A stretch of DNA of 64,000 nt from a virus (lineage: Duplodnaviria > Heunggongvirae > Uroviricota > Caudoviricetes): positions 1-64,000 of IMG/VR virus record IMGVR_UViG_3300028361_000020. One strand, 5' to 3'. A model generated the notes under the pieces. It was not told where the DNA came from. It saw nothing but the letters and a program-made list of their open reading frames with translations, and made no database searches. The translations under genes were made by a program, and so were the position numbers. This document shows positions 29,374 to 58,689 of the stretch, piece by piece (within the stretch, counting starts at the first letter, position 1; the number at the start of each line of letters is the position of its first letter).

Positions 29374-29756
29374 AAAGAAGAGGCCTTATATGCAGCCGCT
29401 TCTTTACGTTTGGATTTCCATGTTAGTGAATCACGCATTTTTTCATATGCTGCAATCTTTTCATCATAGAAGTTCATCATACTATCAAGTCTAGCAACCG
29501 CATCAGGAGAGGTGTCGCCTGCGCGGCTGTTTTCACACATCATGTTCATCTTTGCCAGATGACAATGAACAATAGAATCTTGAAACATTTGACCTAACAT
29601 ATTAGAATCTTCATAGTCAATGGTGACTTTAGTCATCTTTGTTAATCTCCGAAACAACTTGTATTCTAGCACGATACATGCCACCCTTGATCTTTTCGCC
29701 ATCGGTTTCACCTTTGGAAAATACCTCAGCAAACTTAACTCTTTTAGCTTGATCAA
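29370..29756 (-). CDS. hypothetical protein, 128 aa (start uncertain; overlaps the cca 3' end)
   Basis: ORF. Confidence 0.3.
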   Translation of the reverse strand: MIKLKELSLLRYFPKVKPMAKRSRVACIVLEYKLFRRLTKMTKVTIDYEDSNMLGQMFQDSIVHCHLAKMNMMCENSRAGDTSPDAVARLDSMMNFYDEKIAAYEKMRDSLTWKSKRKEAAAYKASSL

Positions 29757-30894
29757 ATACTTTCTTTAGTTTCTGCAAATGTTGTACATCTACATTTTCA
29801 CAGCCTAGTCTGCCGCGTTCGTCGCACTCGCCTACTCTTAGCAGCAAGTCTACAACTTCTGGATTTCTCCAAGCATCCATTTCTGTAAACATTTTTACAA
29901 ACGTTTTTGGATTCAACGAGTCTAACTTGTGCATGTGCATGTGAAATCTTGTGGTCTTCATCGCACGGTTGCGCATATTAGAAGGCACAGACAGCCTATT
30001 GGCAAAGCTTTCTACAACAGCAACACCTGTGACTTCATGGCCGTAGTGCTTGGGCAGTGCTGCTCTAGGCGTTAGACCTTTGCCAAAGTCGTGTACCAGT
30101 GCAGCAAATCGCGTTTCTAGGTCGTAGCCAAAATCAACTGCGGCAGTTAGTACCAACATTGTGTGCTCGTACGCATCGCCTTCGGGGTGCCATCGCCGCG
30201 CCTCTAGTGCAGTCTTTAGCTTGTACACTTCGGGAAAAATCACATGCAAGGCATCCGTTTCCAACAGTGTGTCAAAAAACAGGCGCGCATGAGGCTCCAT
30301 TAGTGCTCTTCTTGTTTCTTTCCATACACGCTCACTTACTAGTTCATTAAGAACACCGGACTTGGCCATTTTTGAAACCATTGCAACTGTTTCGGGTGCA
30401 ACTGTCCACTCAGGACCTAGTCTGGCGCGAAATCTCGCCAGACGCAATACTCGTACAGGATCTTCGGCAAATGCATCACTGGTGTGCCGAAGGACTTTTG
30501 CTTCTAAATCTTCCAAGCCACCATATGGATCAAAGAACGCCCAATTGTCGTTGGTGTCAGTGTCTATTGCAAATTCACTTTCGGTCAGTTTCTGCATGGC
30601 CATGCTGTTGACAGTTAAGTCTCGTTGGCCCAAGTCTTCCAACAGTGTAACATCTGTACCAAAATCGCTGGTGAATCCCAAGTAACCTTCGCCAGTTTTA
30701 TGTTCGCGACGTGCAAGTGCATATTCTTCATTGGTCTCAGGATGCAAAAATACAGGAAAATCAGCACCAACTTGTCCAAAACCGTCAGCTAGCATTTGCT
30801 CGGGTGTAGAACCAACTACTACCCAATCTCGGTCTTCGACAGTACGCCCCAGCCGCATATCTCGTACCGGGGCGCCTACTAAATGTCTTTCCAT
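29629..30894 (-). CDS. cca: tRNA nucleotidyltransferase (CCA-adding enzyme, class II with HD domain)
   Basis: N-terminus HLVGAPVRDMRLGRTVEDRDWVVVGSTPEQM..DFPVFLHPETNEEYALAR is close to E. coli Cca; HD motif ALVHDFGKG. Confidence 0.85.
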   Translation of the reverse strand: MERHLVGAPVRDMRLGRTVEDRDWVVVGSTPEQMLADGFGQVGADFPVFLHPETNEEYALARREHKTGEGYLGFTSDFGTDVTLLEDLGQRDLTVNSMAMQKLTESEFAIDTDTNDNWAFFDPYGGLEDLEAKVLRHTSDAFAEDPVRVLRLARFRARLGPEWTVAPETVAMVSKMAKSGVLNELVSERVWKETRRALMEPHARLFFDTLLETDALHVIFPEVYKLKTALEARRWHPEGDAYEHTMLVLTAAVDFGYDLETRFAALVHDFGKGLTPRAALPKHYGHEVTGVAVVESFANRLSVPSNMRNRAMKTTRFHMHMHKLDSLNPKTFVKMFTEMDAWRNPEVVDLLLRVGECDERGRLGCENVDVQHLQKLKKVFDQAKRVKFAEVFSKGETDGEKIKGGMYRARIQVVSEINKDD

Positions 30895-34486: not shown

Positions 34487-35044
34487 TTATGGCATATCTC
34501 CGAAATCATTAATATTGTCTGCTTCCATATCACGCACAACAAAGTTTGCACCCAATGATGTTAGAATTTGCTTAATTGTGTCCAACTGTTCCTGATCGTC
34601 AAAACAGATCATCCATTCTGCACTTCCGTCACTAATGTCGTCTAGTGCACCAAAACCAGCAATATCACCACCCTGATCATTACTGACCATTTTCTTGGTA
34701 AACTTATTGTATGGTTGAGAAAAGACATTTATTCCATAATCTTGTTCTATTTGGATGATTACATTAACTTCATCAATGTTGTATGTGTCACCTTTACCTT
34801 CATCGGTTAGTCCGTCAACCATCTCAACAGTGTAACCATCCGCAAGTGCGCGGTACCAATCATCACTGGTGTAATACAGCGCTAGAATCTCATCATCAGG
34901 CAGCGCAGTTAAACGTGATTTTTCAACCTTAACACGGGCTACGCCAGCGTGGTATCCATCTGGCAAGCCTGAACTTTCATAAACAAAATTAGCTAGTGTA
35001 TCGGTAACTTCGTCTTTACATAGTTTCATAGTATAGTTCTCCAA
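34487..35044 (-). CDS. hypothetical acidic protein, 185 aa
   Basis: ORF. Confidence 0.4.
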   Translation of the reverse strand: MENYTMKLCKDEVTDTLANFVYESSGLPDGYHAGVARVKVEKSRLTALPDDEILALYYTSDDWYRALADGYTVEMVDGLTDEGKGDTYNIDEVNVIIQIEQDYGINVFSQPYNKFTKKMVSNDQGGDIAGFGALDDISDGSAEWMICFDDQEQLDTIKQILTSLGANFVVRDMEADNINDFGDMP

Positions 35045-35388
35045 TGTTTGTTAAATTCTGTCATGAAAGATTCAATGTTTGCTGCTCCAACAGGATTGGC
35101 ACTGTGTACATGCCAGGCAAAGTTTGGATCATATACTGCGTTGTTGTCCATGATGTAGTTGCAGATCCACTTGGCGAAACTCATTCCTGTTTTTTCGCCG
35201 TTGTCTGTGGTGTAATGTATGTCAGCCAAATCGTGATCAAAGCTGACAAATGTGGGCAGGCCGTATTGTTTAACTGCCCACACTGCGTCGTCCATGCTGC
35301 GGCAGATTACTAACTCTTTGTAAGGTCCGTAATCATAGCGCACATCGTCTGGAAAACGTATGTCGTCTAAAAACAGTGTCCAGTTCAT
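35026..35388 (-). CDS. hypothetical protein, 120 aa
   Basis: ORF. Confidence 0.4.
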   Translation of the reverse strand: MNWTLFLDDIRFPDDVRYDYGPYKELVICRSMDDAVWAVKQYGLPTFVSFDHDLADIHYTTDNGEKTGMSFAKWICNYIMDNNAVYDPNFAWHVHSANPVGAANIESFMTEFNKHWRTIL

Positions 35389-36247: not shown

Positions 36248-36554
36248 GATAGCCGCTAAATGTTAATACAAACAACGAATACTTTTTAGGATCTTGAAAT
36301 ATAACAACCCCACTTTCTACTGTTGACATCGAAGCATCGTAATACGACAAACCTTGATTGAAAAGAAACAACTGGTCTTCGAGTGTGTCAACCTCTTGCA
36401 GCAAGGATTCGATGCCTGTCCAAACCAAATCCTTCTGGCACCAGTGAACAAAGCCGACCCATGCACTCGGACAGTCTGCCATTCTCCGGTCCAGCTTCAT
36501 CTCTACAGTTGCCATTATTCTGCTACTCGACGGGTTAGTGTAACAACCTTCCAT
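36231..36554 (-). CDS. small protein, Y-x-L-F-V-L-K family (ends KYSLFVLTFSGYHANKN)
   Basis: C-terminal motif. Confidence 0.45.
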   Translation of the reverse strand: MEGCYTNPSSSRIMATVEMKLDRRMADCPSAWVGFVHWCQKDLVWTGIESLLQEVDTLEDQLFLFNQGLSYYDASMSTVESGVVIFQDPKKYSLFVLTFSGYHANKN

Positions 36555-36910
36555 GGTCCGTGGTCTTCATAGAAGTTTGACTTGCGGCGGCACTCTCTTG
36601 CGTCGAAAGTAGAAACTCCTGCACGTTCTGACGAAACTACAACCTGAACTGTGCTACACTCACTCATCATCTGTTGCTGCGCCAAGGCCGGTGACATTGT
36701 AAGAAACAGCACAGGAAAGAATGTAATTATCCCAACTATGCATGCAATCCTGGCGTATCGTCCTACGCGATCCAAAATTAAAATTGGCCATAGCATAATC
36801 AGCACGCCAGCTCCTAGATACACTAGTAACCATGGCGAGTCAAGCAACGGTATTCCGTCCATTAAGTAGAATAAAAGTTCTGCTATTGTTACAACATAAT
36901 CACGTATCAT
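36515..36910 (-). CDS. integral membrane protein, 131 aa
   Basis: 2-3 TM helices. Confidence 0.4.
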   Translation of the reverse strand: MIRDYVVTIAELLFYLMDGIPLLDSPWLLVYLGAGVLIMLWPILILDRVGRYARIACIVGIITFFPVLFLTMSPALAQQQMMSECSTVQVVVSSERAGVSTFDARECRRKSNFYEDHGPWKVVTLTRRVAE

Positions 36911-37067
36911 TGTTTTTCATCCCATTCGATGTTTAATTTGTCAAAAAATGCACGGCGCACCGCTTTCTCTTGTTTTGTTCGAGCTTTCCAAAAAAGGCTG
37001 CGATAACCGTTTACAAACATTATCGCGTCTGCTATTACATAGCCTGCAACAACAATAACAAATGCAA

Positions 37068-37325
37068 TTAGTTCCATAATGATCTCTTCTGGTACATTGT
37101 TGCACCTCTGGTGTTGGGTGTGTATTCTCTTACTAAGATGTCACACAACGCTAATGTACCGGAGTATTTTAAGCAAAATATTGTCATAATTGATTTCTTT
37201 TTATGCGACACTAATTTTAAATTGTAATTCGTTCGCCTTTGTTCCCACGTCAAATCAAATCCTTCGCTTTCTAACAAATGATAGAACTTGCGTGTATACT
37301 TATCATTATTATATTTTGCAAACAC
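37068..37325 (-). CDS. hypothetical protein, 85 aa
   Basis: ORF. Confidence 0.35.
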   Translation of the reverse strand: MFAKYNNDKYTRKFYHLLESEGFDLTWEQRRTNYNLKLVSHKKKSIMTIFCLKYSGTLALCDILVREYTPNTRGATMYQKRSLWN

Positions 37326-37362
37326 AATTTCTCAATATCCAGGAAGAGGAGTTAGGTGATAA

Positions 37363-37650
37363 TCAACACTGTCCACAATGGCCAACCCTTCGGTTACACA
37401 GGTTGCACATTTCAACGATTTTGCATTGTCCTCGAAATGCGTTACGTCTGCGTTTTTGGCTAACACCCTGACGAGTCCCCCATCCTGATCCTCCTAAAAA
37501 GCTACTGTCTGACTTTTCAAAAATCTCTTGAATGTACTTTTCTGCTTCTTCTCTTGTGGTTGATTGAGCAACTTTATGCTGTCGTATATATACAACAAAC
37601 GGCCTGTTGGGTTCAGGCTCGGTAAACCAAGATTTAAACCACGACAGCAT
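37363..37650 (-). CDS. hypothetical protein with a C-terminal Cys cluster (start at internal MLSWFK)
   Basis: ORF; the longer reading overlaps the rnlA C-fragment. Confidence 0.35.
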   Translation of the reverse strand: MLSWFKSWFTEPEPNRPFVVYIRQHKVAQSTTREEAEKYIQEIFEKSDSSFLGGSGWGTRQGVSQKRRRNAFRGQCKIVEMCNLCNRRVGHCGQC

Positions 37651-38566
37651 CAGCAACCTCCATCCATTTAGCACAAGCTTTCCATTGTACATTTGTGTTG
37701 ATGTGCTTTGATACATAATGCAATAACATCTCGCGCATGTCGTCGCCATCCAGCAAGCGAAACACAAAGCTGGCGTCGGTCTTGTTTTGCAACTTAGGAA
37801 TAAACTTTGTAGCAACCGACTTACGATCTGGATATTTTACAGCTTTTTCATAAAGTGCCTTGACACGATCTTCGGTGCGACCAAACGCATCCCAGAATCG
37901 AACTTCGAAATCGCGGATACGATCTGCATCTACTTGTGGCAACTGGCCGATCACATCGTCGAGATCCTCGTTGACAATCAATGCAACAATGTTACGATCG
38001 AACCGCACACGATCCAGTGTTTTATGGATACGCACATACCAGTCGTTCTTGCCTTTGTACATCTCGCCGTTGAAGCTGATGATAAACCCTTCACGACCTT
38101 CGTCGTTGCGGTGCTTGGCAACGTAGTCATCCAGCGTACCATCAACCGAGTCATGTAACACAACTTGTGTAATTGAGTCCGGTGTTGAATTCTGGCGACC
38201 CAAGTAGTTGCCAGTTAGATTATGACGGATTGCCAGCAGCACAAGGTCAGCAGATCGATATCCTAGCACAATCTGGTTATCGGGCGCTACAAACTCAAAC
38301 AATGGAGTAACTCCCATTTTTACAGCTTTTTCTAACCAATGCATTTCTGCTTGGTAGTTAGAACGAGTACGCATGTACCTTTCGGCTTGCTCGCTCACAT
38401 CAGTTACCCCCATCTTAGTAGCAAGACGGACAACGCCATTAATGATCAATGGTCTAATCATTGAGTTATGCACAAGAATGTTATTAGCAAAAAAATTATT
38501 AGTAGATGTCTGGATGTCATATCGGAGAGAATTGTTTCTAATTTTTTTAATATTTGCAATTTTCAC
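37634..38566 (-). CDS. rnlA: RNA ligase 1 (RnlA) C-terminal fragment preceded by a 34-aa split-intein C-half (IntC)
   Basis: MKIANIKKIRNNSLRYDIQTSTNNFFANNILVHN|S resembles DnaE IntC and ends with HN+Ser; the downstream extein SMIRPLIINGVVRL...FEFVAPDNQIVLGYR matches T4 Rnl1 after KEDG. Confidence 0.8.
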   Translation of the reverse strand: MKIANIKKIRNNSLRYDIQTSTNNFFANNILVHNSMIRPLIINGVVRLATKMGVTDVSEQAERYMRTRSNYQAEMHWLEKAVKMGVTPLFEFVAPDNQIVLGYRSADLVLLAIRHNLTGNYLGRQNSTPDSITQVVLHDSVDGTLDDYVAKHRNDEGREGFIISFNGEMYKGKNDWYVRIHKTLDRVRFDRNIVALIVNEDLDDVIGQLPQVDADRIRDFEVRFWDAFGRTEDRVKALYEKAVKYPDRKSVATKFIPKLQNKTDASFVFRLLDGDDMREMLLHYVSKHINTNVQWKACAKWMEVADAVVV

Positions 38567-38602
38567 AAATTTTCCTTTACAAAGTAGGTGTTTGTCTAGT
38601 TT

Positions 38603-38610
38603 TTATATAA
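38603..38610 (+). promoter_or_regulatory. T4-late-type promoter box TATAAATA upstream of the plus-strand homing endonuclease gene
   Basis: tttttaTATAAATAcc, then SD-like aaggat 8 nt before the ATG. Confidence 0.4.
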
Positions 38611-38634
38611 ATACCATACACGAAGAAATAAAGG

Positions 38635-39651
38635 ATGTCAACTATGAAATGTTATGTTTGTGAAGATAAAATAGAAGAAAAGTTCAGTCATTTTTATACA
38701 TGCGCTAACGGCTTATCCAAACCGGAACATTTAATAAATCTTATATGCTATAATTCTAACACAAGCAAGTCAGATTTTAAAAATGACCTAATAAATATGT
38801 ATGTTGTTCAGGATTTTTCAATTAAGGATTTATTAGATCATTTTAACATACAACGGTTATCAAGTAGTACGTTATATAAGATTATATATTACTTAGGTAT
38901 TCCTAAGAAGACTACCACGAGATCAAAACGAACTCAAGAAAAATACAAAAAAACTTGTCTTGAAAAATACGGCACAATAAATGCTCTTTCCAAAGATACA
39001 ATTGCATATCATAAACGAAATGATACTGTAAAACGTAAATATGAGGTCGACAATGTCAGATCGGCGCAAGAAATAAAGGATAAAATTAATATTACTATGC
39101 TTGCCAAATATGGAACACTACGAAGAACAAATATTGAGAAGCAGAAAGAAACAAAAGCAAACTGGTCTAATGAGTACAGAGCTGCGCTTGGTGATAAGAT
39201 TAGTGCTGGCCGTAAAAAGTGGTGGGCTAATTTAACAGATTCAGAAAAATATAATGCTTGTAAAAGATCTGGGCTTAACCAATATTCTGGCAAAATGAAT
39301 TCTATTGAGTCGGTAATTGCCGAGGCGCTAGCTTCATTAGGAATATCGTATATATTTTCATATTTTATTGGGAATAGACAATTTGACTTCAAGATAGGCA
39401 CTATATTGATTGAATGTCAAGGTGATTTCTGGCATGCTAACCCAATATTTTATAACGAAGGAGACGTTGTAACTCATCCAGGTAATAAAAATAAACCAGT
39501 ATCTGATATTTGGGAAAATGATAAAAAGAAACAATTACTTGCCGAAAAGAAAGGATTTACAGTTATTGAAATATGGGAATATGAAATTAATAACTGTACT
39601 GATCTACCCCAACTTATTCTTCAAAAAATAGAAGGTCTTCTTCCCCAGTGA
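38635..39651 (+). CDS. free-standing homing endonuclease-like gene (N-terminal Zn finger, KYGT repeats, C-terminal Vsr/DUF559-like PD-(D/E)xK nuclease domain) lying between the two rnlA fragments
   Basis: Only plus-strand gene in the region; AT-rich; C-terminal ILIECQGDFWH ... KGFTVIEIWEYE resembles Vsr/DUF559 motifs. Confidence 0.6.
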   Translation: MSTMKCYVCEDKIEEKFSHFYTCANGLSKPEHLINLICYNSNTSKSDFKNDLINMYVVQDFSIKDLLDHFNIQRLSSSTLYKIIYYLGIPKKTTTRSKRTQEKYKKTCLEKYGTINALSKDTIAYHKRNDTVKRKYEVDNVRSAQEIKDKINITMLAKYGTLRRTNIEKQKETKANWSNEYRAALGDKISAGRKKWWANLTDSEKYNACKRSGLNQYSGKMNSIESVIAEALASLGISYIFSYFIGNRQFDFKIGTILIECQGDFWHANPIFYNEGDVVTHPGNKNKPVSDIWENDKKKQLLAEKKGFTVIEIWEYEINNCTDLPQLILQKIEGLLPQ

Positions 39652-40303
39652 GCTCATCTGCCCGTATATAATCGCTTATATCGGTGCACCAAATTTTGTG
39701 ATTTCCAGTAAGTTTTAGGATATGCCCATTAGTCAATTCTATTTCATACCAATCATCACATTGGGTTTTAATAGCCGATGCCAATACAGGTGTCCACATT
39801 ATCTGCTTTTTTAAATTCTGCCCTAATACAAGTCCATTATAGTTAGTTTCACATAAAAATTTTATAGTTTTGCCACCATCAGGTGTTGCAATAATACTAT
39901 CTTCATCAAGACACCCGTCCATTTTTTCCATAACAGTGTGCGGACGTGTCATGTCGATGTTTTTTGACAGTGTTTCTTCACGCTCGTTGATGTTAAAAAA
40001 CTTGTGGAACGGACGAGACATAAGTTCTCCGTCTTCACCAAATATCAATCCGCGGCATTCGCGCTTGATCCTGCTGGACAGGCTGCGTTCTTCACGCATC
40101 TTTGCGCTGCCGCCTGCAACTGCAATTGGTGGAAAGGTGTCTGGCATGGACACGGCATAGTTAATTACAGTAAAGCCGTCGCGCTCTGCAACAATAAACT
40201 CGTCACATCCTTTGATATGCGGAAGTACATCGTTGATAGTGCGTATCTCGGGAAATTTGTAAGACATGTTGCCTCCATTAAACTCTAGCACTACTCGGTG
40301 CAT
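39614..40303 (-). CDS. rnlA: RNA ligase 1 (RnlA) N-terminal fragment fused to a split-intein N-half (IntN)
   Basis: RECRGLIFGEDGEL..RPFHKFFNINE..NIDMTRPHTVMEKMDG matches T4 Rnl1 up to the KxDG adenylation motif; it is followed directly by intein block A CLDEDSIIATPDGG and block B TNGHILKLTGNH. Confidence 0.8.
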   Translation of the reverse strand: MHRVVLEFNGGNMSYKFPEIRTINDVLPHIKGCDEFIVAERDGFTVINYAVSMPDTFPPIAVAGGSAKMREERSLSSRIKRECRGLIFGEDGELMSRPFHKFFNINEREETLSKNIDMTRPHTVMEKMDGCLDEDSIIATPDGGKTIKFLCETNYNGLVLGQNLKKQIMWTPVLASAIKTQCDDWYEIELTNGHILKLTGNHKIWCTDISDYIRADELTGEEDLLFFEE

Positions 40304-40354
40304 AATTTATATTACACTATAGCAGTCCTATAGTCAACGGCTAAAAACAATTTT

Positions 40355-40867
40355 TTACAGCAACGCATCGCCGTACATATCAAATATTCGAATATCATCA
40401 AACCCTTCAGTAAAGTCGGGCATCACAAAGCTCTTGGTCATGTTTGCAATAACAAATCCAGGAATTGTTTTACCTGGCCTGCTGACAAGACGATTCTGCC
40501 AATTGGCCCAGTCGTCAACGTCCGCCACGGATGGATGCAAATAGCATTCACAAATTATATCGTATGCATTCTTTTTCATACGTTCAACAATAACGGCTCG
40601 CTTGTTAACACCCATGTTGGTTTGATCCCAGATCACATCATGTTTGTCTTGGAGAGCAAACACCAATCCTTCTTCTGCAATTTTCACAGCATTTTTATAT
40701 TGAGACTCGAACACATCGTTGTAGGTTTTACCCAAAGCGAGTGCAATCAGTTCAAGTTCGGCATCTGTGCTGTACACATATGCATCGCGGTCCATTTCGA
40801 CCATCTGTTTTACGCGAGTGCTTTTTCCTACTGCTGGCGCGCCAACTAATACATAACAAGTTGCCAT
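40355..40867 (-). CDS. P-loop kinase (polynucleotide/nucleoside kinase-like, Pnk-kinase-domain-like)
   Basis: Walker A LVGAPAVGKST at the N-terminus; 170 aa; adjacent to rnlA. Confidence 0.5.
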   Translation of the reverse strand: MATCYVLVGAPAVGKSTRVKQMVEMDRDAYVYSTDAELELIALALGKTYNDVFESQYKNAVKIAEEGLVFALQDKHDVIWDQTNMGVNKRAVIVERMKKNAYDIICECYLHPSVADVDDWANWQNRLVSRPGKTIPGFVIANMTKSFVMPDFTEGFDDIRIFDMYGDALL

Positions 40868-40868
40868 T

Positions 40869-41186
40869 TTATTTCTCCTTGGTTAGCTGTGTTATCGTGT
40901 ATGCTTTAACGTCCCATACGGACGGGTTGTTGTATGTGGCACAGGCCTTGGTAATTGCAGCTTCTGCATCTGCCGTGTACACATATCCTAAATGATTTGT
41001 ACCCGCATGCACAGAAAAGCATCTAATCTTTTCTAAGGTATCTGCATTTTCCATATGTTTACAATGCATATGCAGGGTCAGATGGTAATTGGGTAGATTC
41101 ACACACAACATCAAATTGGTCGGTAGGAAACATTGTAGTTGCAAGCTCGTCAGTGAGTTGCTGGTATGCCGAAGTTGTATCAGCAA
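40869..41186 (-). CDS. hypothetical protein, 105 aa
   Basis: ORF. Confidence 0.35.
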   Translation of the reverse strand: MLIQLRHTSNSLTSLQLQCFLPTNLMLCVNLPNYHLTLHMHCKHMENADTLEKIRCFSVHAGTNHLGYVYTADAEAAITKACATYNNPSVWDVKAYTITQLTKEK

Positions 41187-41258
41187 GTATCATTGCAGAA
41201 AAGACTTCGCATTGTGCCAATGGCATCGCGCCAAATACAATCATTAAAATTAACAATC

Positions 41259-41570
41259 TCATAATACTTTTTCGCAGTCGGTGACATCAAACTCAACACT
41301 TTCAACTGTGCTCTGAAGAATAAATTCACTGTCAAACCCGTCGCGGCTGGCGACGCCTAGTGCAAGTTCCTCGGATGGCCAAAGAGTTGCTCCGGATGAT
41401 CCATCGCCATGATCTGTGATTCTAACCCATGCTGTAACTTTGACTGATTGTCGTTGAGCCCATCCTAAGCGAAATGCATCAGCCAGCTGGCTGGGTTCGT
41501 CTGTTTTCATTCCGTGATTGATTAACGCTTGTGTTAGTTCGACGCCGTCGTCTTGCATATGCATAGACAT
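41259..41570 (-). CDS. hypothetical protein, 103 aa
   Basis: ORF. Confidence 0.4.
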   Translation of the reverse strand: MSMHMQDDGVELTQALINHGMKTDEPSQLADAFRLGWAQRQSVKVTAWVRITDHGDGSSGATLWPSEELALGVASRDGFDSEFILQSTVESVEFDVTDCEKVL

Positions 41571-50439: not shown

Positions 50440-50514
50440 TGGTGCGCCCGGAAGGACTTGAACCCCCGACCACTGATTAAACTTCAGCTGCTCTACCTAC
50501 TAAGCTACGGGCCA
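50440..50514 (-). tRNA. tRNA-like with irregular acceptor (bulged G); anticodon loop AGTTTAA (TTT?)
   Basis: D GCTT-AGTAGGTA-GAGC; T GGGGG-TTCAAGT-CCTTC; CCA encoded. Confidence 0.4.
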
Positions 50515-50673
50515 CACATTATTGGTCGCAGGGCGTAGACGATAATGAGCCGTCCCCTCGAGGTTTCTGACGCCGCCCTGCTAAGTCCAACAAGTTACAA
50601 CTGCACTGTGATCGGCAGATTTATTATAACTCGACGCAGACTATTCTTATTCGGTGTATAGTATTATTTTCCA

Positions 50674-50922
50674 TTATAAGCCTTTCAAAAATTCGTATAC
50701 TGCATCAGCGGATGCAAACATTTTAGTACCTTGTTGTCTACTTGTTACCATAATCTGCTTGTCGTAACAGCGGATCAGGCCAAAGCCTTTGAACCTACCG
50801 TTACCCAGTAACCTTGTGTTCCATCGTGTTCTACGCGGAACTGGATCGTTCCACTCATGTTCAATGCCAAGTATTTCACTACATTGCACATAAAACGTTT
50901 TTTGTTCATCATTTGTCATCAT
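50674..50922 (-). CDS. hypothetical protein, 82 aa
   Basis: ORF. Confidence 0.4.
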   Translation of the reverse strand: MMTNDEQKTFYVQCSEILGIEHEWNDPVPRRTRWNTRLLGNGRFKGFGLIRCYDKQIMVTSRQQGTKMFASADAVYEFLKGL

Positions 50923-50983
50923 ATTGCTATACTACATTATTTTGTATGCTGTGTCGACCAGTAATTTATCATCTTTCCTAATG

Positions 50984-52540
50984 TTACGGATTTAATTCTT
51001 CATACGCTGCTTTGCAGGTTGCATAAAAGTTTGTCATTTCTGGAAATGTATTGAGGAAATCCTTGCCGCGTCTGCGGTCGTATTCATTTACAAACTGGTA
51101 GAACGAACTTCTTCCGTGGGTAATTTTTTTAGTTTTGATATCTGTAGGATGAAGGTCACATGCAGTCATTACATCCAATAAGATTCTTTTTAATTTAAGC
51201 GATTCGTTGCTTAAAAACCCTGTATTACCGTTCCACTCGTCGGCAGCATTTGCGTACATAAAATTCACAGAAGGCAGCAAGAATTCAGCAACCAGTTCCT
51301 TGGTTGACAACGCCACATCCAAAAACTCTGGGTGTCTAACATAAGGAATATCAATGCCAATCCGATTGTATGAACGATGCGTGTTGGTATACCCGGATGT
51401 TTTGTATTTTGTCAACCCGAGGTTTACTGTGTTGTCTAAGTTGACTCCACTTTGGTCTAATTGCTGAAATATGTGGTGTTTGTTGTACGTCTTCTTCAAT
51501 GACAGCACATATTCTAAAAAGTCTAGGAAGGTTGGGAGACTGAACAAGTTAAACGCTGCCATAAATGTAACGCGAGTATCGGTTGTGTTCCCAAGAAAGT
51601 ATGTTAAATTTTCTTTGAGCATGTTCCAATTCATACCGTCTCGGCTGTATTCGGCCTGACCCTCGACACTTTCGGCACTGAGGAATAACGTAACTCGCTT
51701 GACACATTTTTCATCAACCAATTGATTTGACAACTTGGTAAACTGTTTCCACAACTTGTCGGGCGGGCAACCGTTGCTGTTGATGGCAAACTCCATGTTG
51801 GGATTTGGATGTTCCAGCATGTATTCCATTAGTTTGACAGTGTGTTTGCTCATCAACGGTTCTCCGCCTGTGACACGCAATGTGTGCAGATGCGGCAGTG
51901 CTTCGGGCAACCATTTCCAGAATGCATCAGTGTATGGATTGTCTTCTCGATTTTTAATTTGCTCTGCTGGATTGCCGTTGTACTGTACGCCCGGGAATAA
52001 ATAGGCACCGTGTTCTGTTATTTCATCTACCCATTTGCTGCTGAAGCTTGGCCCACAATATGCACATTTAAAATTGCATACATTACTGAAACTAATTTCC
52101 ATATATTTTGGAAATACATTCTCGTCGCCCTTTAGTGCAGCAATTTCATCAAAGTTATGCACACTGTACGGATCCAAACTTTTTAACGTGCGATCGCTGG
52201 TCTCATTGGTGTTGTCCTCGATGCGCCAACAGAAGTCACATTCTGATGGTCTTTTGCCGTTGAGCATTTGCTTGCGGGCTGTCTTTTTATGCTCTGTGTT
52301 GTGCAATGCACTAGGATTGACTTCGAGTTCGTTCAACGGAATTTTATGTGCAGTGGGATGGTGACAACTGTGTGTTAACCCTGATCCCAAGTGCATAGTA
52401 ACTTGTGTCCATTTTGCCAAACAAAAGCCCGGACCAGTTTCGTTGAGTAATTCTTGCATCTTGTCGCAGTTGTTTTTACTATGCTCGATATAGCCACTGG
52501 GCTGTTTGTCCCATTCAACATCATCAAATTTCTTGGTCAT
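50984..52540 (-). CDS. radical SAM enzyme (MoaA/PqqE/SPASM-like CxxxCxxC) with a roughly 140-aa Cys/His-rich N-terminal extension, 518 aa
   Basis: EISFSNVCNFKCAYCG cluster at about residue 150; GGEPLM SAM-binding motif. Confidence 0.65.
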   Translation of the reverse strand: MTKKFDDVEWDKQPSGYIEHSKNNCDKMQELLNETGPGFCLAKWTQVTMHLGSGLTHSCHHPTAHKIPLNELEVNPSALHNTEHKKTARKQMLNGKRPSECDFCWRIEDNTNETSDRTLKSLDPYSVHNFDEIAALKGDENVFPKYMEISFSNVCNFKCAYCGPSFSSKWVDEITEHGAYLFPGVQYNGNPAEQIKNREDNPYTDAFWKWLPEALPHLHTLRVTGGEPLMSKHTVKLMEYMLEHPNPNMEFAINSNGCPPDKLWKQFTKLSNQLVDEKCVKRVTLFLSAESVEGQAEYSRDGMNWNMLKENLTYFLGNTTDTRVTFMAAFNLFSLPTFLDFLEYVLSLKKTYNKHHIFQQLDQSGVNLDNTVNLGLTKYKTSGYTNTHRSYNRIGIDIPYVRHPEFLDVALSTKELVAEFLLPSVNFMYANAADEWNGNTGFLSNESLKLKRILLDVMTACDLHPTDIKTKKITHGRSSFYQFVNEYDRRRGKDFLNTFPEMTNFYATCKAAYEELNP

Positions 52541-52810
52541 TGTTTATTTTTACCACTTCTTACTGCAACTATAACACAAAAGTTTATATGTGCAACGTAT
52601 TTATTATAACTAATAGTGTGCTGTTACGCCAAAGGAAAACCAGGTCTATAACGCAGGCTACTATCCATATTTTTCCCTTGGCGCTCTAGCCTTGCCACTA
52701 TTGCTAGCCCGACAAGGTTTCTCTCGCGTCTAGGGTACTTCGTTCCACTCATTATAAGATGGCTGCCTCGAAGCCAACTTCCTAATAGTTTTTCTTAATA
52801 TCCTTGTCTA

Positions 52811-53017
52811 CTAAGTGTTATTTATATGCGGCGTTACATCAGACATCTTGCGGCGAACTGTAATGCCCTTGCCAGACGGTGTTGTACGAACAAATACACC
52901 AATATCTTCGCCGCCATTTTGCAAAATATCTCCGTGCATATCGAAAGTCGGCTTTGATTTTTCAACTACGCTAAGAATAAAAGGCAGGGGCTTTCCTGGC
53001 ACAAAGTAAAGGTTCAT
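52811..53017 (-). CDS. hypothetical small protein, 68 aa
   Basis: ORF upstream of the rSAM gene. Confidence 0.3.
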   Translation of the reverse strand: MNLYFVPGKPLPFILSVVEKSKPTFDMHGDILQNGGEDIGVFVRTTPSGKGITVRRKMSDVTPHINNT

Positions 53018-53020
53018 GGT

Positions 53021-53203
53021 TTATTCCTTTTGCGCATTTAAGAGTGCATCTTTGTCGGATAGCGCAATACCAGTGTATTTAATGTGCGCCTCCTGATTCA
53101 TTCCGCAAAGATGACACTCTGCTGGGCGATAATAATCTGCTTCAAATTTATGGTATGTTACCACGCAACACCAACAGCCGTCTATCTTGGCAAACGTTGT
53201 CAT
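53021..53203 (-). CDS. Cys-rich micro-protein (DGCWCCVV ... ECHLCG), 60 aa
   Basis: ORF, 7 Cys in 60 aa, immediately upstream of the rSAM gene on the same strand. Confidence 0.35.
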   Translation of the reverse strand: MTTFAKIDGCWCCVVTYHKFEADYYRPAECHLCGMNQEAHIKYTGIALSDKDALLNAQKE

Positions 53204-53402
53204 GGTTTATTCCTTCTTATTTCGTAGTCAAGTCTACGCTGGGCTTGTTACGGCCTGCCTTGCTGTTGAAAGTGATACTAATCTCATCCACTTGTGATAA
53301 GAAGTTGATTCAGTGTGAACGTGGCCCCATTCGCGTGCCTTGCGTTGTTTTTCATATTCTGCACACGCAATCGCCTCTGGTTCGTCGTACTCGTTTACAA
53401 CT

Positions 53403-53669
53403 TTACTCATTTTGTGCCAGTGCCTTGAGAATTAATATTACCATATCCTCTACAACATCCTCTTCGTTGGCTGGCACAAAGTCATTGGCTGACATAGTAC
53501 CGACACTCCATGCGCTCCAGCACCGTGTGCAATACATTGCGCCGTCAAGCTCTTCTGCAACGGCATCCTTGAGTTGGTCTAGTGCAGACTCAGATAACAA
53601 TGCAAGCAACGCTTTGTTGGAAATACTACTCATTGCCGACCTTCTTGTCGTCGTTGAAGATTTTGACAC
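53403..53669 (-). CDS. hypothetical protein, 88 aa
   Basis: ORF. Confidence 0.35.
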   Translation of the reverse strand: MSKSSTTTRRSAMSSISNKALLALLSESALDQLKDAVAEELDGAMYCTRCWSAWSVGTMSANDFVPANEEDVVEDMVILILKALAQNE

Positions 53670-54048
53670 TCACACCTTCGGAGTAATAACCGTTGCTGCT
53701 TCCATAGAACCTAACATCGACTGATCCTTTGATGGTGCGGAATCTGTAGTAGGTCCATGTATGGCTGTCGTTGCTATGTGTAGTTGGACCCGGGTCGTAG
53801 TTTGAAACTTCTTCAACCAACAACAAAGGAGTACCGACTAGATCTTCTAAGTCTCCGACGATGTCTTCGATGTACACACTTTCGCAACAATCTTGATCAT
53901 GTTCTAGTGTAACAAAGTTGTTTTCTGTAACGTACAATGTCAGAGAATCGTCGTCGGCGGTTACAGCACTCAACACACGGCCCAGCAGACCTTCAAATGT
54001 TTTGACTGGCCCTACCAATCTGTTGTATGTTATATGCTTGCTTTCCAT
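53626..54048 (-). CDS. hypothetical protein, 140 aa
   Basis: ORF. Confidence 0.4.
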   Translation of the reverse strand: MESKHITYNRLVGPVKTFEGLLGRVLSAVTADDDSLTLYVTENNFVTLEHDQDCCESVYIEDIVGDLEDLVGTPLLLVEEVSNYDPGPTTHSNDSHTWTYYRFRTIKGSVDVRFYGSSNGYYSEGVSVKIFNDDKKVGNE

Positions 54049-54074
54049 AACTTTATCCTTTGATTTTTATATTT

Positions 54075-54150
54075 GGTACCGGCTCTTGGGATTGAACCAA
54101 GGACCTCCAGTTCCACAAACTAGCGCTCTAACCAACTGAGCTAAACCGGC
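54075..54150 (-). tRNA. tRNA-His (GTG)
   Basis: Acceptor GCCGGTT/AGCCGGT; D GCTC-AGTTGGTTA-GAGC; loop TTGTGGA; T CTTGG-TTCAATC-CCAAG; CCA encoded. Confidence 0.8.
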
Positions 54151-54455
54151 ATATTTTCTCTTTTAATAGTGTCTAGCACACGTTCTCTTTCATGTGCTAG
54201 ACGACCAATTTCGTTTGCTAGCGTTACTAACTCGTCATTGGAGTAATCCATATTGAAGATTAGTTCGGCTACAAATTCCTTGCGATTGTGTGCAGACCAG
54301 TATTTGCGCACACGACGGACAATCTCGTTACTGTTCTTAGAGTCTTGATTGTTCATCCACTGTTCAAGAAGCTTTTGCATGTTAGTCAAGTGTGCTGGTT
54401 TGGCCAGCCGCACGCGCTGCTCGCGTTTCGCCACGTTCCAGCGCATCGGGATCAA
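54141..54455 (-). CDS. hypothetical protein, 104 aa
   Basis: ORF; its stop overlaps the tRNA-His 5' end. Confidence 0.4.
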   Translation of the reverse strand: MIPMRWNVAKREQRVRLAKPAHLTNMQKLLEQWMNNQDSKNSNEIVRRVRKYWSAHNRKEFVAELIFNMDYSNDELVTLANEIGRLAHERERVLDTIKRENMPV

Positions 54456-54606
54456 GGTTCAGTGCATCGGCAGTGCGTTGTGCTTTTTCTTGCCCTACCA
54501 CAGTGGTATATTGCTTGCCGCCAACTATGACATTCCACAAGTTTGTTTGCACTCGTTCGGATTGTGTGTTTGGAGTGATGGTAAAGTCATTGCATTTACG
54601 CTTCAT
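54382..54606 (-). CDS. hypothetical protein, 74 aa
   Basis: ORF; promoter TTGACA-17-TACATT at 54657-54685. Confidence 0.35.
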   Translation of the reverse strand: MKRKCNDFTITPNTQSERVQTNLWNVIVGGKQYTTVVGQEKAQRTADALNLDPDALERGETRAARAAGQTSTLD

Positions 54607-54694
54607 GTTAGTTCCTATCCTGTGTGTCTATGCATTGTGCATCGTGTCTATATGTAAATGTAGCAGAGTGTTGCTGACATGTCAACGTGTATTT

Positions 54695-54769
54695 TGGTGT
54701 GCCGGATGGGATTCGAACCCATGACCTTCGGTTTAAGAGACCGCTGCTCTACCGCTGAGCTACCGGCGC
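54695..54769 (-). tRNA. tRNA-Lys (CTT)
   Basis: Same backbone as the Lys(TTT) at 60239; loop CTCTTAA; T ATGGG-TTCGAAT-CCCAT; CCA encoded. Confidence 0.7.
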
Positions 54770-54773
54770 ATAT

Positions 54774-54877
54774 TGGTGGAGAGAAATGGAATCGAACCAC
54801 TGACACCAGGCTCTTGCCCGTGCTCTACCTCAACAAATTCGTTCTGCAGAACTCCTTCGTCTCTGAGCTACCTCTCC
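54774..54877 (-). ncRNA. tRNA-like RNA (104 nt) with about 29-nt insertion (palindrome GTTCTGCAGAAC) in the D-loop and a tetraloop in place of the anticodon loop
   Basis: Acceptor GGAGAGG/TCTCTCC, T-arm AGTGG-TTCGATT-CCATT and CCA are canonical; the body is aberrant. Confidence 0.35.
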
Positions 54878-54894
54878 GTAATTTCTATCCAACG

Positions 54895-54975
54895 TCATTA
54901 CTGCAACAGGAATCGAACCCGTTTTTCTAGCTGACTGCTAGCGTCCTATCCAGTAGACGATACAGAATCTGCATA
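54895..54975 (-). ncRNA. degenerate tRNA-like element (T-arm ACGGG-TTCGATT-CCTGT and D-arm-like hairpin; no acceptor)
   Basis: Signature hairpins only. Confidence 0.25.
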
Positions 54976-55094
54976 CAACCTCTCAACGAAGTGGTTGTAT
55001 GCAGGACCTTGGATAAGGCAGTCGTTGCTGCCTAAGCTTGCTATCCTAGTCTTTAAACCAGGAAGGAAGTTAATCTTTCTCGCAAGCTATTGTT

Positions 55095-55171
55095 GGACTA
55101 GGATGGACTTGAACCAACGACCTCCCACGCGACAAAGCATAGGCGCTCTTCCAATCTGAGCTACGTAGTCC
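55095..55171 (-). tRNA. tRNA-like; D-arm and T-arm canonical, anticodon arm unresolved, no CCA
   Basis: GCTC-AGATTGGAA-GAGC; GTTGG-TTCAAGT-CCATC; acceptor GGACTAC/CTAGTCC (6 of 7 pairs). Confidence 0.35.
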
Positions 55172-55181
55172 GTAATAAAAT

Positions 55182-55400
55182 TTACTGTTCCTTATCGCAT
55201 TCGCCAACCCATGCAAGCTCTCCGGTATTAGGGCAAAACAATGCATAGCCTCGGCTAATGGATTCTTGCGTCATTGTTTCCAAAGTTTCTGTCGCTGTTT
55301 TCAAGAATTCTTGATGTACTACTGCAACAACAAAAAAGATCATCGCAACTGACAAGAGTATAAACATCACAGCTAGTAGGGCTCCGTCGTGTTTTGGCAA
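55182..55400 (-). CDS. small membrane protein, 72 aa
   Basis: TM helix. Confidence 0.35.
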   Translation of the reverse strand: MPKHDGALLAVMFILLSVAMIFFVVAVVHQEFLKTATETLETMTQESISRGYALFCPNTGELAWVGECDKEQ

Positions 55401-55412
55401 TATTTTATTCCT

Positions 55413-55862
55413 TTAATAAATGTACACAACCGGTTTTACATTGGTGAATTCACTCTCAATAATGGTAGCAATAACATTCCAATTGCCGCCACCCAGGCCA
55501 GCGCCAATCTGCGGCATTGCAACATGAGAATGGCCCCTGCATTCGCAAAATTCATTGATGTTGCGCATTGCATCGGATACTGCATCGTAGCTAACGTATC
55601 GCTTTTTTTCGCCGCCATAGAACTGCTGTGTAATTGCATTGATCAAAACTTTGTCGTTTTCTTCTACAGGAATAATACAGCCCATTGCAAGACCAATAGT
55701 AATTGCAGCATACTGGTTTAAATATGCATTGTACGCCAACGGAAAGTCGTCTCGTACAATCTTTGCCACGCCACTACCCATAACACCTTGTGCATTGCAG
55801 CCGTGTGCAAGCACTTTGATATCAGTTTTAAACATGTCGCCGTTTCGATATTCAATCTTCAT
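55413..55862 (-). CDS. macro-domain protein (ADP-ribose binding/processing)
   Basis: VLAHGCNAQGVMGSGVAKIV fits the macro-domain Gly-rich loop; 149 aa. Confidence 0.65.
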   Translation of the reverse strand: MKIEYRNGDMFKTDIKVLAHGCNAQGVMGSGVAKIVRDDFPLAYNAYLNQYAAITIGLAMGCIIPVEENDKVLINAITQQFYGGEKKRYVSYDAVSDAMRNINEFCECRGHSHVAMPQIGAGLGGGNWNVIATIIESEFTNVKPVVYIY

Positions 55863-56057
55863 TGTTGATCTCTTTTATAATTTTGGTGACTTTATTCCAA
55901 GATTCGATTGTTGGGAGGCCAACTGGCAATTCATCCAATCCTAATTTTGCAAGGCTCTCTGAAGATGTTTTATCCCATGCTCTGAGCTGTTCTGAAAATT
56001 CTTCTGAAATAACAATCTTAGCCATTGTAACGTCCCTGTTTGTTGTGTTGTGTAACT

Positions 56058-56086
56058 ATATTAGCAGACTAATACAGTACTGTCAA
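56058..56086 (-). promoter_or_regulatory. sigma70-like promoter TTGACA-17-TAATAT upstream of the macro-domain gene and a 53-aa micro-ORF
   Basis: Minus strand reads atgcTTGACAgtactgtattagtctgcTAATAT. Confidence 0.5.
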
Positions 56087-56091
56087 GCATG

Positions 56092-57093
56092 TTAATGATG
56101 TTCAACCTCGTATTCGTCAATAATCTTGGTGATTCCGTTAACCAAGAACCGATACGCATCATGATCTTGACCTTGACTTCCTTCGTGAAGCCCTGGGATC
56201 CATGCTTTTCGGGTACTATCCATAAATCTTTCAATGCAATTTCCTACCAACGCCAGTTGCAACAATTCAAGTACCCGGTTGGTATCGCCTGCTGCATATG
56301 CATCACTTACTTTAGATCGTAGACGAAATATGTCAAGCTCGGTGCCGGCACCATAGCGACGAAATGTGTTTTTAAGTGGGTGCGAAGAATTTTGGTCTAG
56401 TACTATACCATCACTAAATCCACCATTATCCACGGTCCTAAGAATACTTTTTACCTTGGCAATTTTTTCTACATCGACTGTTTTGTCAGTAACCCATTTT
56501 TCTACAAATTCTTCATCTGTGAGATTTTCATCTGACCAACACTTATTTTCAAAATAACTTTCAATAAAGCTGGGTAATGTTTCTGCTAGCTGTGCATAGG
56601 TTACATCACGATCATAATCTTCAGTGGGATCAAGTCCTTTTCCCTTGCCGGTGTATTGATCAAATTTATAGTTAGACCACAGATCGTCTACAAAGTCTTT
56701 GCGCATCATTACATAGTTGATTTCACAAGGCGGCATTGATCCGTATTCTTTGGCAAAAAGTCTGCGTTCGTGCGTGGCCTCAAAGAACAAGTCGATGTCA
56801 AAATTATCACGTTTGACTGCAATATCATGAACCTCATTGTCGCCAACCTCAGTTTCGACTAGTATCTCTTTGATTCCAGCAAGAATTAGAGGCAGTGCCA
56901 CGCCAGAGGCATTGGTGCCACCACCGTAGTCGTCGTATTCTGCTACAAACGGAGTAAGCACAGGTTTCCATAATGCTGAACTTTTGCAGAAACTGGAATC
57001 AGTGCCGTTTTCCATAAGCGGAAATACGTAGACTTCTTCGCCTTCGAAAATTGGTAGATTGGTTAGTCCGCATGTTTTATTCCAGCATCCCAT
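56092..57093 (-). CDS. hypothetical protein, 333 aa
   Basis: ORF. Confidence 0.45.
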   Translation of the reverse strand: MGCWNKTCGLTNLPIFEGEEVYVFPLMENGTDSSFCKSSALWKPVLTPFVAEYDDYGGGTNASGVALPLILAGIKEILVETEVGDNEVHDIAVKRDNFDIDLFFEATHERRLFAKEYGSMPPCEINYVMMRKDFVDDLWSNYKFDQYTGKGKGLDPTEDYDRDVTYAQLAETLPSFIESYFENKCWSDENLTDEEFVEKWVTDKTVDVEKIAKVKSILRTVDNGGFSDGIVLDQNSSHPLKNTFRRYGAGTELDIFRLRSKVSDAYAAGDTNRVLELLQLALVGNCIERFMDSTRKAWIPGLHEGSQGQDHDAYRFLVNGITKIIDEYEVEHH

Positions 57094-57220
57094 ATTATAA
57101 CTCTTTTTCCTGTTTCAATGTTTTTGCAGTTTCTAGCATTTCGATGGTTTCTGTAATAAACTCTTTGATTATTAATAAACAATGTGCCGCCTTGTGGATG
57201 TACAAATACTCTTCCCTGTG

Positions 57221-57592
57221 TTAGCAAAGTGTGCGAACCAATGCCATATCAGCACTGGTACCAAACTCTGATTTTACAGCTTTCATCACTTGTCCGATGT
57301 TGCCGCCGGATTGCAGAATTGGCTCAATCACAGCTCGCAGTTGTAGCTCAGTTGCCATAGCAGGAAGATACTTGGAAAGGATTGCGATCTCTTGTGGATC
57401 AGCAAACTTGTTCTCCTTTAGCTTCTGCACAGCTTTCTTGACATACTGGACTGCTTCGTCAGCGGAGGTTTCTCGGGTATTATCATTCTTGCCAATTTTC
57501 TGAATTTCATCTAAGTGAAACACCATTACACTTGCAAGTGGATTCTTTTCCTTGCGCATTACAAGTACATCAGTTTTGAATAGTTCGAGCAT
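57221..57592 (-). CDS. GatB/YqeY-domain protein
   Basis: C-terminal GNIGQVMKAVKSEFGTSADMALVRTL matches the YqeY/GatB C-terminal helical domain signature. Confidence 0.6.
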   Translation of the reverse strand: MLELFKTDVLVMRKEKNPLASVMVFHLDEIQKIGKNDNTRETSADEAVQYVKKAVQKLKENKFADPQEIAILSKYLPAMATELQLRAVIEPILQSGGNIGQVMKAVKSEFGTSADMALVRTLC

Positions 57593-57656
57593 TGTATTTC
57601 TTTCTAAATAATGTTTAATAAGCTGGCAGCATTTGCTGACTGCATTTCCTCAGTCT

Positions 57657-57740
57657 TGGTGTCCTTCCAGATTAGACGACTAGTAGGATTTGAACCCAAT
57701 TTCCAACGTCAAGGTGTCCTTCTATTAGACGACAGCTTAC
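57657..57740 (-). ncRNA. tRNA T-arm-like hairpin (GGGTTCAAATCC) flanked by imperfect 22-bp direct repeats (ggtgtccttc(cag/t)attagacgac); tRNA remnant or small RNA
   Basis: Direct repeats at 57658-57680 and 57711-57731; promoter-like TTGACA at 57770. Confidence 0.3.
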
Positions 57741-58683: not shown

Positions 58684-58689
58684 GTTATT

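Follow-up and report, generated by a model that had tools for sequence, protein, structure and literature searches.

The 64,000-nt stretch of viral DNA analysed here (positions 1 to 64,000 of the IMG/VR record IMGVR_UViG_3300028361_000020, hereafter the window) carries a gene for a T4-type RNA ligase 1 (Rnl1; gene rnlA) that is broken in two. Between the ligase halves lies a cassette composed of the N-terminal half of a split intein (IntN), an endonuclease gene on the opposite strand and the C-terminal half of the intein (IntC). We propose, with a probability of about 0.8, that this is a functional fractured gene whose product is restored by protein trans-splicing, and that the cassette has been spread by its EDxHD endonuclease. 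Coordinates are positions in the window, and both rnlA halves are on the minus strand. L numbers designate related loci or contigs compared with the window, P numbers designate metagenomic protein relatives, and an arrow within a motif marks a splice junction.

The fractured rnlA gene

The N half is encoded by an open reading frame (ORF) of 229 aa (39614..40303, minus strand), which reads ...PHTVMEKMDG and then, in frame, CLDEDSIIATPDGG...TNGHILKLTGNH...FFEE before the stop. The ORF of the C half (37634..38566, minus strand; 310 aa, GTG start) reads (M)KIANIKKIRNNSLRYDIQTSTNNFFANNILVHN and then SMIRPLIINGVVRL...FEFVAPDNQIVLGYR. In phrog_562, the PHROG profile of Rnl1, the N half matched positions 30-108 (E=1e-17) and the C half positions 107-368 (E=2e-46), so the two halves abut exactly. 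Both were also matched by Pfam RNA_lig_T4_1 and by NCBIfam TIGR02308, the latter with E=1e-28 for the C half. The N-extein carries nucleotidyltransferase motif I with the catalytic lysine, plus the ECRG and HKFFN elements; the C-extein carries motif III (FEFVAP), motif IV (EGFII) and motif V (KGKNDWY), ahead of a probable C-terminal domain. The C half aligned to residues 146-279 of T4 Rnl1, with FEFVAP, the EG of motif IV and the K-x-K-x-DWY of motif V in common. These searches agree with the first-pass annotation of this DNA, which had described the N half as the Rnl1 N-terminus up to VMEKMDG followed by intein blocks A and B and a stop, and had placed the resumption of Rnl1 directly after IntC. 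The sequence features that it quoted were all present where it had located them.

In the alignment with T4 Rnl1 (2c5u), '...YILTKEDGSLV' corresponds to '...TVMEKMDG↓CLD' of the N half, and the catalytic lysine is the equivalent of K99. This alignment places the break three residues past the catalytic lysine, at the junction of the KxDG Gly with the next Ser, in accordance with the earlier claim that the gene is cut at the catalytic lysine motif. The residues reported to be essential in T4 Rnl1 (Wang, Schwer and Shuman, 2006) are distributed over both halves: motif I and the ECRG and KFFN elements belong to the N half, motifs III-V to the C half. Neither half alone should therefore be an active ligase.

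The exteins joined in silico covered PF09511 over its whole length (1-227 of 227; 93.7 bits, cutoff 28.3; E=2e-26). The Rnl1 C-terminal domain PF20819 gave a weak match, below the cutoff (16.3 bits against 27; E=0.013), and the phrog_562 alignment of the C half runs through position 368 of 377. The spliced product is predicted to have about 394 aa, reading ...EKMDG-SMIRPL..., which corrects the former estimate of roughly 370 aa. An intact rnlA, which the first-pass annotation had proposed to look for in relatives, occurs in L015: EKMDGSMIRPL is continuous there (site sequence ATGGAAAAGATGGACGGCAGTATGATTCGACCG), and the downstream cREC_REC gene is common to the window. This intein-less syntenic allele reads EKMDG-SMIRPL across the insertion point and defines the empty site.

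The window ligase belongs to the same family as T4 RNA ligase 1 (gp63, RnlA; 2c5u, 5tt6) by PF09511, TIGR02308, phrog_562 and motifs I, III, IV and V. In addition, the gene is linked to kinase and phosphoesterase genes, as in the Pnkp-Rnl1 tRNA repair pathway of T4. On the other hand, T4 rnlA is one uninterrupted gene whereas the window rnlA is fractured, the identity to T4 is low, and the kinase in the window is a separate small protein, unlike that of T4.

The longest N-half ORF begins at ATG 40303, and the true start is probably ATG 40267, since a GGAGG (40276-40272) lies 4 nt upstream of it and the homologues start with MxYxFP there. From ATG 40267 the N half has about 217 aa, that is, the Rnl1 N-extein of 118 aa (39914..40267), whose start Met is shared by the homologues, and an IntN of 99 aa (39617-39913) closed by the stop TAA 39614-39616. 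The C half has its own ribosome-binding site (AAAGGA, 38573-38578, minus strand), 6 nt before the GTG. It is composed of the 34-aa IntC (38465..38566), with blocks F and G and a His-Asn end, and the C-extein (37634..38464; 276 aa and stop), whose first residue is Ser+1 (SMIRPL...).

Between the halves, the endonuclease gene (38644..39651, plus strand; 335 aa) probably starts at ATG 38644, as in the gene callers, with AAAGGA 8 nt upstream; the alternative ATG 38635 would give 338 aa. Its 3' end converges on IntN and overlaps it by 38 bp (39614..39651), covering the last 12 IntN codons. The starts of IntC and of the endonuclease gene are separated by a divergent spacer of 77 bp (38567..38643). 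On the plus strand of this spacer, 30 nt before ATG 38644, lies a T4-late-promoter-type box, TATAAATA (38606..38613), and its minus strand has a sigma-70-like TTGACA-17-TATGGT (38641..38613). The whole cassette, from IntN codon 1 to the last IntC codon, has 1,449 bp (38465-39913) and a GC content of 31.6%, against 45.5-47.2% in the exteins.

Upstream of the N half, a sigma-70-like site (TTGACT-17-TAATAT) and a near-late box (TATAAATT) are found within 40288-40345 (minus strand). Both lie shortly before ATG 40303, in the 51 bp that separate rnlA from the kinase gene, a position that fits with transcription starting there and translation starting at ATG 40267. In the promoter and terminator scan, counts were not above the shuffled expectation, and the sites are to be read as plausible ones.

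Split intein, endonuclease and mobility of the cassette

IntN begins with Cys1 (C131; CLDEDS, block A), contains the block B Thr and His in LTGNH and has a net charge of -10. IntC ends in ...NNILVHN, has a net charge of +4 and is followed by Ser+1. The NCBIfam profile intein_Nterm (TIGR01445) matched residues 131-204 of the N half with 27.4 bits (cutoff 24.5), and IntN and IntC joined in silico matched the NrdJ-1 intein (8ubs) with E=6.7e-14. The class-1 marks (Cys1, T-x-x-H, HN and Ser+1) are invariant in an alignment of seven IntN sequences and in five IntC sequences. The polypeptide is broken between block B and block F, and the polarity of an acidic IntN and a basic IntC is also found in other lineages. 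By these marks the element is a class-1 split HINT intein, predicted to splice in trans.

The naturally split NrdJ-1 intein (8ubs, 9omb) is the best match of the joined window intein among solved structures. Its blocks F and G are nearly identical to those of the window, YDIQTST(H/N)NFFAN(D/N)ILVH, and it has the same acidic IntN, basic IntC and Cys1/Ser+1 nucleophile pair, the first extein residue of NrdJ-1 being Ser+1. The two inteins differ in host and insertion site, the host of NrdJ-1 being a class II ribonucleotide reductase, and between them IntN is far more divergent than IntC. The 34-aa leader of the C half, which the first-pass annotation had taken for a DnaE-type IntC ending in HN+Ser, is indeed an IntC with that ending, but it is NrdJ-1-like and not DnaE-like (E=5e-5 to 8ubs on its own).

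An exhaustive phmmer search with IntN retrieved 348 cluster representatives (50% identity) at E<=1e-3. In nearly all of the best 150 of these 348 the match ends at the C-terminus of the protein, which indicates that the family as a whole is split. Among 137 IntN relatives, 49 carry the OB-fold domain PHA02142, a domain of phage/Naegleria-type RNA ligase; another 23 of the 137 were assigned RNA_lig_T4_1, and two the adenylation domain of NAD (nicotinamide adenine dinucleotide)-dependent DNA ligase. The N-extein ends in KxDG in 83 of the 137 and in K..G in 17 more, with neighbouring sites otherwise (KMDGEN↓C, KTDEER↓C). On these matches the intein family is large, almost entirely split and located mostly at the KxDG of RNA or DNA ligases. 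A contiguous mini-intein of the same family (…FLLREGG-MKLKSIRK…MLVHN↓S) is present in the metagenomic protein P0237 (520 aa), at the KIDG of an RNA-ligase-like host; it is the cis-splicing counterpart of the split form. When the junction and IntN were compared by tblastn with 50,697 phage records, only distant IntN-like segments with 28-36% identity were retrieved. Of these 11 segments, one comes from an unannotated uncultured phage and the other ten from Salmonella and Proteus phages, where they lie in genes for DNA or UvsW helicases. The rnlA intein of the window was absent from the cultured phages among those records.

The endonuclease has an N-terminal CxxC..H..C motif, a helical DUF7487 region and a C-terminal EDxHD/Vsr-like nuclease domain, in which residues D248, E257, D261, H264 and D293 are invariant in 21 homologues. 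Five cassette endonucleases share the invariant C..C..H..C, the DUF7487 middle region and a C-terminal FDF...IE.QGD.WHANP...W..D block. Their profile found I-Bth0305I (3r3p) as the best match in the PDB, followed by Escherichia coli Vsr, and the vsr profile TIGR00632 matched the endonuclease at 4e-4; an opposite-strand nuclease with a zinc-finger-like motif and a Vsr-like domain, as had been read between the halves, was recovered. The AlphaFold model (m0426a1b6edf5) has a mean predicted local distance difference test score (pLDDT) of 82, above 90 in the nuclease domain, and superposed on 3r3p and Vsr with template modelling (TM) scores of 0.76 and 0.62. Residues ~1-210 of the model (N-terminal and DUF7487 regions) gave Foldseek matches of high root-mean-square deviation to helical-repeat proteins of the Toxoplasma mitoribosome, which probably reflect a generic helical-repeat similarity of the modelled fold.

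From profiles and model, the protein is predicted to be a free-standing EDxHD (Vsr-like) homing endonuclease. The EDxHD prototype I-Bth0305I (3r3p; Taylor et al. 2011, PMC3239194) has, as here, a Vsr-like C-terminal nuclease with E, D, H and D residues and an N-terminal multi-helix DNA-binding region, and no other PDB entry matched better in sequence or in fold. I-Bth0305I sits in a group I intron of recA, whereas the window gene is free-standing inside a split intein, and its N-terminal region (CxxC..H..C and DUF7487) differs from that of the prototype. The late-type box ahead of the gene, noticed in the first-pass annotation, is present at 38606-38613 and is the sole plus-strand copy of TATAAATA in the window. 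Over the window the box is not significantly enriched (seven found, 3.8 expected). It recurs 22 nt upstream of the endonuclease ATG in L007 and L014, with near-matches (CTAAATA) in L008 and L011.

The N-half protein was found on 12 contigs. Six of them, from JGI, ENA and Logan assemblies of different samples, were compared: they have the same three genes, with 100% identity to the window sequence across as much as 3.5 kb, and zero nucleotide variation was observed among them. The same layout occurs in at least five further lineages (L007, L008/L036, L011-L013, L014 and L037), whose N halves are 42-62% identical to that of the window and whose neighbouring genes differ. In each of these lineages a DUF7487/Vsr-like endonuclease gene is antisense to both rnlA halves and overlaps the end of IntN by 38-53 bp. 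The splicing residues (Cys1, block B Thr and His, YDIQT...HN and Ser+1) are kept throughout, with IntN only 29-60% identical. The stop at 39614, whose absence on resequencing the first-pass annotation had named among the points that would overturn its reading, is identical in the six independent assemblies and conserved in the divergent lineages.

The proportion of non-synonymous differences (pN) is far below that of synonymous differences (pS) in the exteins, IntN, IntC and the endonuclease. The ratio of the corresponding substitution rates (dN/dS) between L007 and L014 is 0.10 and 0.20 for the exteins and 0.145 for the endonuclease, and between L008 and L011 it is 0.09 for IntN. By these measures, the exteins, the intein halves and the endonuclease are under purifying selection; this conclusion is drawn from pN being far below pS and from two pairs, L007/L014 and L008/L011.

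The comparison of L007 and L014 also reveals the mobility of the cassette. Between them DNA identity is 98.7% in IntN, 96.4% in the endonuclease, 93.4% in the spacer and 99.0% in IntC, against 71.6% in the N-extein and 65.0% in the C-extein. The plateau of 96-100% identity (4305-6004 of L007) sets in sharply with codon 1 of IntN and fades 50-100 bp beyond the start of the C-extein, as expected if the cassette had homed with co-conversion of a short tract. Since a cassette with 96-99% identity is found here in rnlA genes with 65-72% identity, it moves as a unit.

A sister clade of loci (L018-L035, from IMG/VR) has the same intein family at EKxDG↓S of a divergent PF09511 ligase clade, with a C-extein beginning SMIQVYWDW (HN↓SMIQVYWDW). 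The EDxHD gene is on the host strand in L019-L022 and L031-L033 and is degraded or absent in others of this clade. There is no endonuclease ORF of at least 150 aa between the halves in L023-L028 (gap of ~400 nt) or in L018 and L029 (gap of 120-150 nt). With same-strand, degraded and absent endonucleases, all stages of the homing cycle are represented. In L016 (4001-5982) and L017, rnlA is broken without an intein by an antisense ORF of 221 aa, GIY-YIG-like. The L016 gene is split after codon ~206 (...LLAVRHNITGEYLNIK*), with a separate C-terminal ORF of 187 aa following, and the insert has a GC content of 29% against 41% in the flanks. N halves of 206-212 aa that end at the L016 break point were also found in P0051, P0064, P0074 and P0088.

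Proposed mechanism and alternative readings

Fractured genes were described by Dassa, London, Stoddard, Schueler-Furman and Pietrokovski (2009, NAR 37:2560; PMC2677866), the NrdJ-1, gp41-1 and IMPDH-1 loci being examples. The hosts reported there are gp41, IMPDH, DnaE, NrdA, NrdJ, DNA ligase, terminase and one unknown protein. In those 26 loci the three ORFs are on the same strand, with a spacer of 27-51 nt after IntN and the 3' end of the endonuclease gene overlapping the 5' end of IntC. The free-standing endonuclease between the halves is GIY-YIG or Vsr-like, and in many but not all loci a late-promoter box lies in a hairpin that sequesters the ribosome-binding site upstream of the endonuclease (PMC2677866). 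NrdJ-1, with its acidic IntN and basic IntC, is one of these inteins.

The window locus resembles them in an IntN of ~100 aa, an IntC of ~35 aa, a Vsr-like endonuclease, a phage origin, the presence of TATAAATA upstream of the endonuclease and a short overlap between the endonuclease and an intein-half ORF. It differs in the host, since Rnl1 is outside the eight host types (the nearest being the Felix-01-like DNA ligase), and in the insertion site, motif I KxDG↓S. Moreover, the published endonuclease genes run with the other two ORFs and overlap the 5' end of IntC, whereas the window gene is antisense, with its 38-bp overlap at the 3' end of IntN; a same-strand layout is kept in the sister loci L019-L022 and L031-L033. 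The fractured-gene architecture invoked in the first-pass annotation therefore stands as regards a split gene, an intein and an endonuclease between the halves, but not as regards the published same-strand arrangement.

In the reading that we favour, a selfish cassette of IntN, antisense EDxHD gene and IntC would have invaded rnlA between the motif I Gly (KMDG) and Ser. Two polypeptides would be made, one with the N-extein and IntN (~217 aa) and the other with IntC and the C-extein (310 aa), and the acidic IntN (-10) and basic IntC (+4) would associate and fold into a HINT domain. Splicing would begin with an acyl shift at Cys1 and an attack by Ser+1; the terminal Asn would then cyclise and the peptide bond would form, yielding a 394-aa Rnl1 (...EKMDG-SMIRPL...). 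The endonuclease, expressed from its own late-type promoter, may cut the intein-less rnlA of co-infecting phages near the conserved site, and repair of the cut allele would copy the whole cassette in (homing). What the sequences show is the anatomy of the locus, its family memberships, its conservation with purifying selection and the mobility of the cassette in relatives; splicing, the specificity of cleavage and the part played in tRNA repair are inferred.

Several points weigh against this proposal. The hairpin that sequesters the ribosome-binding site in other fractured genes was not detected in the 5' untranslated region of the window endonuclease (z = -0.5 against shuffles), and the promoter of the C half is a consensus match, not above the shuffled expectation. 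In comparisons with the window itself dS is saturated. Finally, no near-identical copy of the window's own cassette was found in a different extein background, and recent mobility is shown only for the sister lineage.

A different use of the halves would be a non-covalent heterodimer, in which the intein halves do no more than clamp the dimer together, with splicing that is slow, partial or lacking altogether. Fractured genes without inteins do exist and can keep their function, as the Aeh1 nrdA/mobE and SbcD-like loci illustrate (PMC2677866), and rnlA itself is split without an intein at codon ~206 by the antisense GIY-YIG-like ORF of L016. Aeh1 nrdA/mobE and the split rnlA of L016 and L017 are similar to the window locus in that a free-standing endonuclease gene interrupts a gene essential or useful to the phage; lacking an intein, however, they must rely on non-covalent assembly for their function, whereas the window locus has the full set of splicing motifs. 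The residues of splicing chemistry are strictly conserved in IntN sequences with only 29-60% identity, and a mere clamp would not need Cys1, Thr/His, His-Asn and Ser+1. The break is also in the active-site motif I loop, where an unspliced HINT domain of 133 aa would be sterically awkward. We consider such a heterodimer distinctly unlikely. That rnlA was inactivated by the invasion, leaving two decaying ORFs of no use to the phage, is very unlikely: both ORFs are intact, with ribosome-binding sites and all the catalytic motifs, the arrangement is kept in at least five lineages with an extein dN/dS of 0.1-0.2, and the RNA-repair neighbours are retained. In favour of decay, Rnl1 is dispensable for T4 on hosts without anticodon nuclease.

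An assembly or sequencing artefact would be conceivable for a metagenomic source, and an intervening sequence at the RNA level (a group I or II intron) could be suspected because EDxHD endonucleases also occur in group I introns. The identical sequence in JGI, ENA and Logan assemblies of different samples argues against the former. As for an intron, the Rfam search of 37300-40600 found no intron or other family, with one sub-threshold small RNA (sRNA) match only, and intein profiles match in frame on both sides; the probability of either origin is negligible.

Within the trans-splicing proposal, the inverted endonuclease, its convergent overlap with the end of IntN, its late promoter and the C half's own start signals in the 77-bp divergent spacer raise the idea, rather unlikely in our view, that the inversion is not neutral and that assembly of the active ligase is conditional. 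The halves could be produced on different schedules, or the N half could be damped by antisense or convergent transcription. If so, trans-splicing would be a timing or dosage switch for RNA repair, and the specialisation of the intein on the ligase motif I would represent domestication, beyond mere parasitism.

Genome context and significance

The minus strand carries nearly all genes of the window; of the plus-strand ORFs, that of the endonuclease is the largest. The window encodes a Gp23-type capsid protein, rIIA and rIIB, the longest contig with the locus has 251 kb, and the source is a large T4-like phage. A megablast search of 36500-41500 against the 50,697 phage records found no match. 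An affiliation to KVP40-like phages was considered and is unsupported, the closest Rnl1 proteins of cultured phages being only 30-35% identical. The 28 tRNA genes, all of them minus-strand, form two blocks (288-11623 and 50440-60682); three are for tRNA-Lys, and those for Gln, Cys, Asp, Met, Thr, Gly and Ser are duplicated. One ARAGORN 'tRNA-???' (55094-55171) has an 8-nt anticodon loop (ttgt) and could be a frameshift-suppressor-like tRNA or a miscall. Genes for nicotinamide adenine dinucleotide salvage (NAMPT, an NMNAT-like protein, NUDIX and an NMN transporter), an alternative oxidase (AOX), thymidine kinase and a radical-SAM protein are also encoded.

The RNA-repair and tRNA-maintenance genes are located at 29629-30894, 35026-35388, 40355-40867 and elsewhere. 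The repair set includes an AAA_33 kinase directly upstream of rnlA, cREC_REC, HAD_SAK_2 and a Macro domain, together with two Metallophos proteins and a CCA-adding-type nucleotidyltransferase with an HD domain. The P-loop kinase (AAA_33; 40355..40867, minus strand; 170 aa) is outside the mobile cassette and probably acts as 5'-kinase (healing) partner to the ligase. In L007, L008 and L014 the fractured rnlA likewise has AAA_33 kinases and phosphoesterases on its flanks, and a phage RNA-repair system in which cRec, kinases and phosphoesterases are linked with ATP-dependent RNA ligases has been described (PMC7824862). Together with the neighbouring kinase and phosphoesterases, the ligase most likely serves to seal broken tRNAs. 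A counter-defence role for this Rnl1 is suggested by what is known of T4 and by the local gene context.

The open-access literature searched contained no account of an intein in a T4-type RNA ligase 1, whereas inteins have been reported in RtcB-type ligases and a split intein in the Felix-01-like DNA ligase. The T4-type Rnl1 host, the KxDG↓S site and the antisense endonuclease with a conserved convergent IntN overlap are new. The allele collection forms a nearly complete natural series for the origin and spread of split inteins: the empty site, the endonuclease on the same strand, antisense, degraded or absent, the contiguous mini-intein and the intein-less GIY-YIG fracture. Within it, transfer of the cassette with a short co-conversion tract is cleanly exemplified by L007 and L014. 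The family itself is a large and apparently unexploited set of natural split inteins (348 clusters, with NrdJ-1 as the nearest solved member and a Cys1/Ser+1 pair), concentrated at the KxDG of several ligase families, and it offers a ready supply of new orthogonal trans-splicing pairs. For the phages, the finding extends fractured genes from the enzymes of DNA metabolism to an enzyme of RNA repair and counter-defence, and the tRNA-sealing step in these phages would depend on protein trans-splicing.

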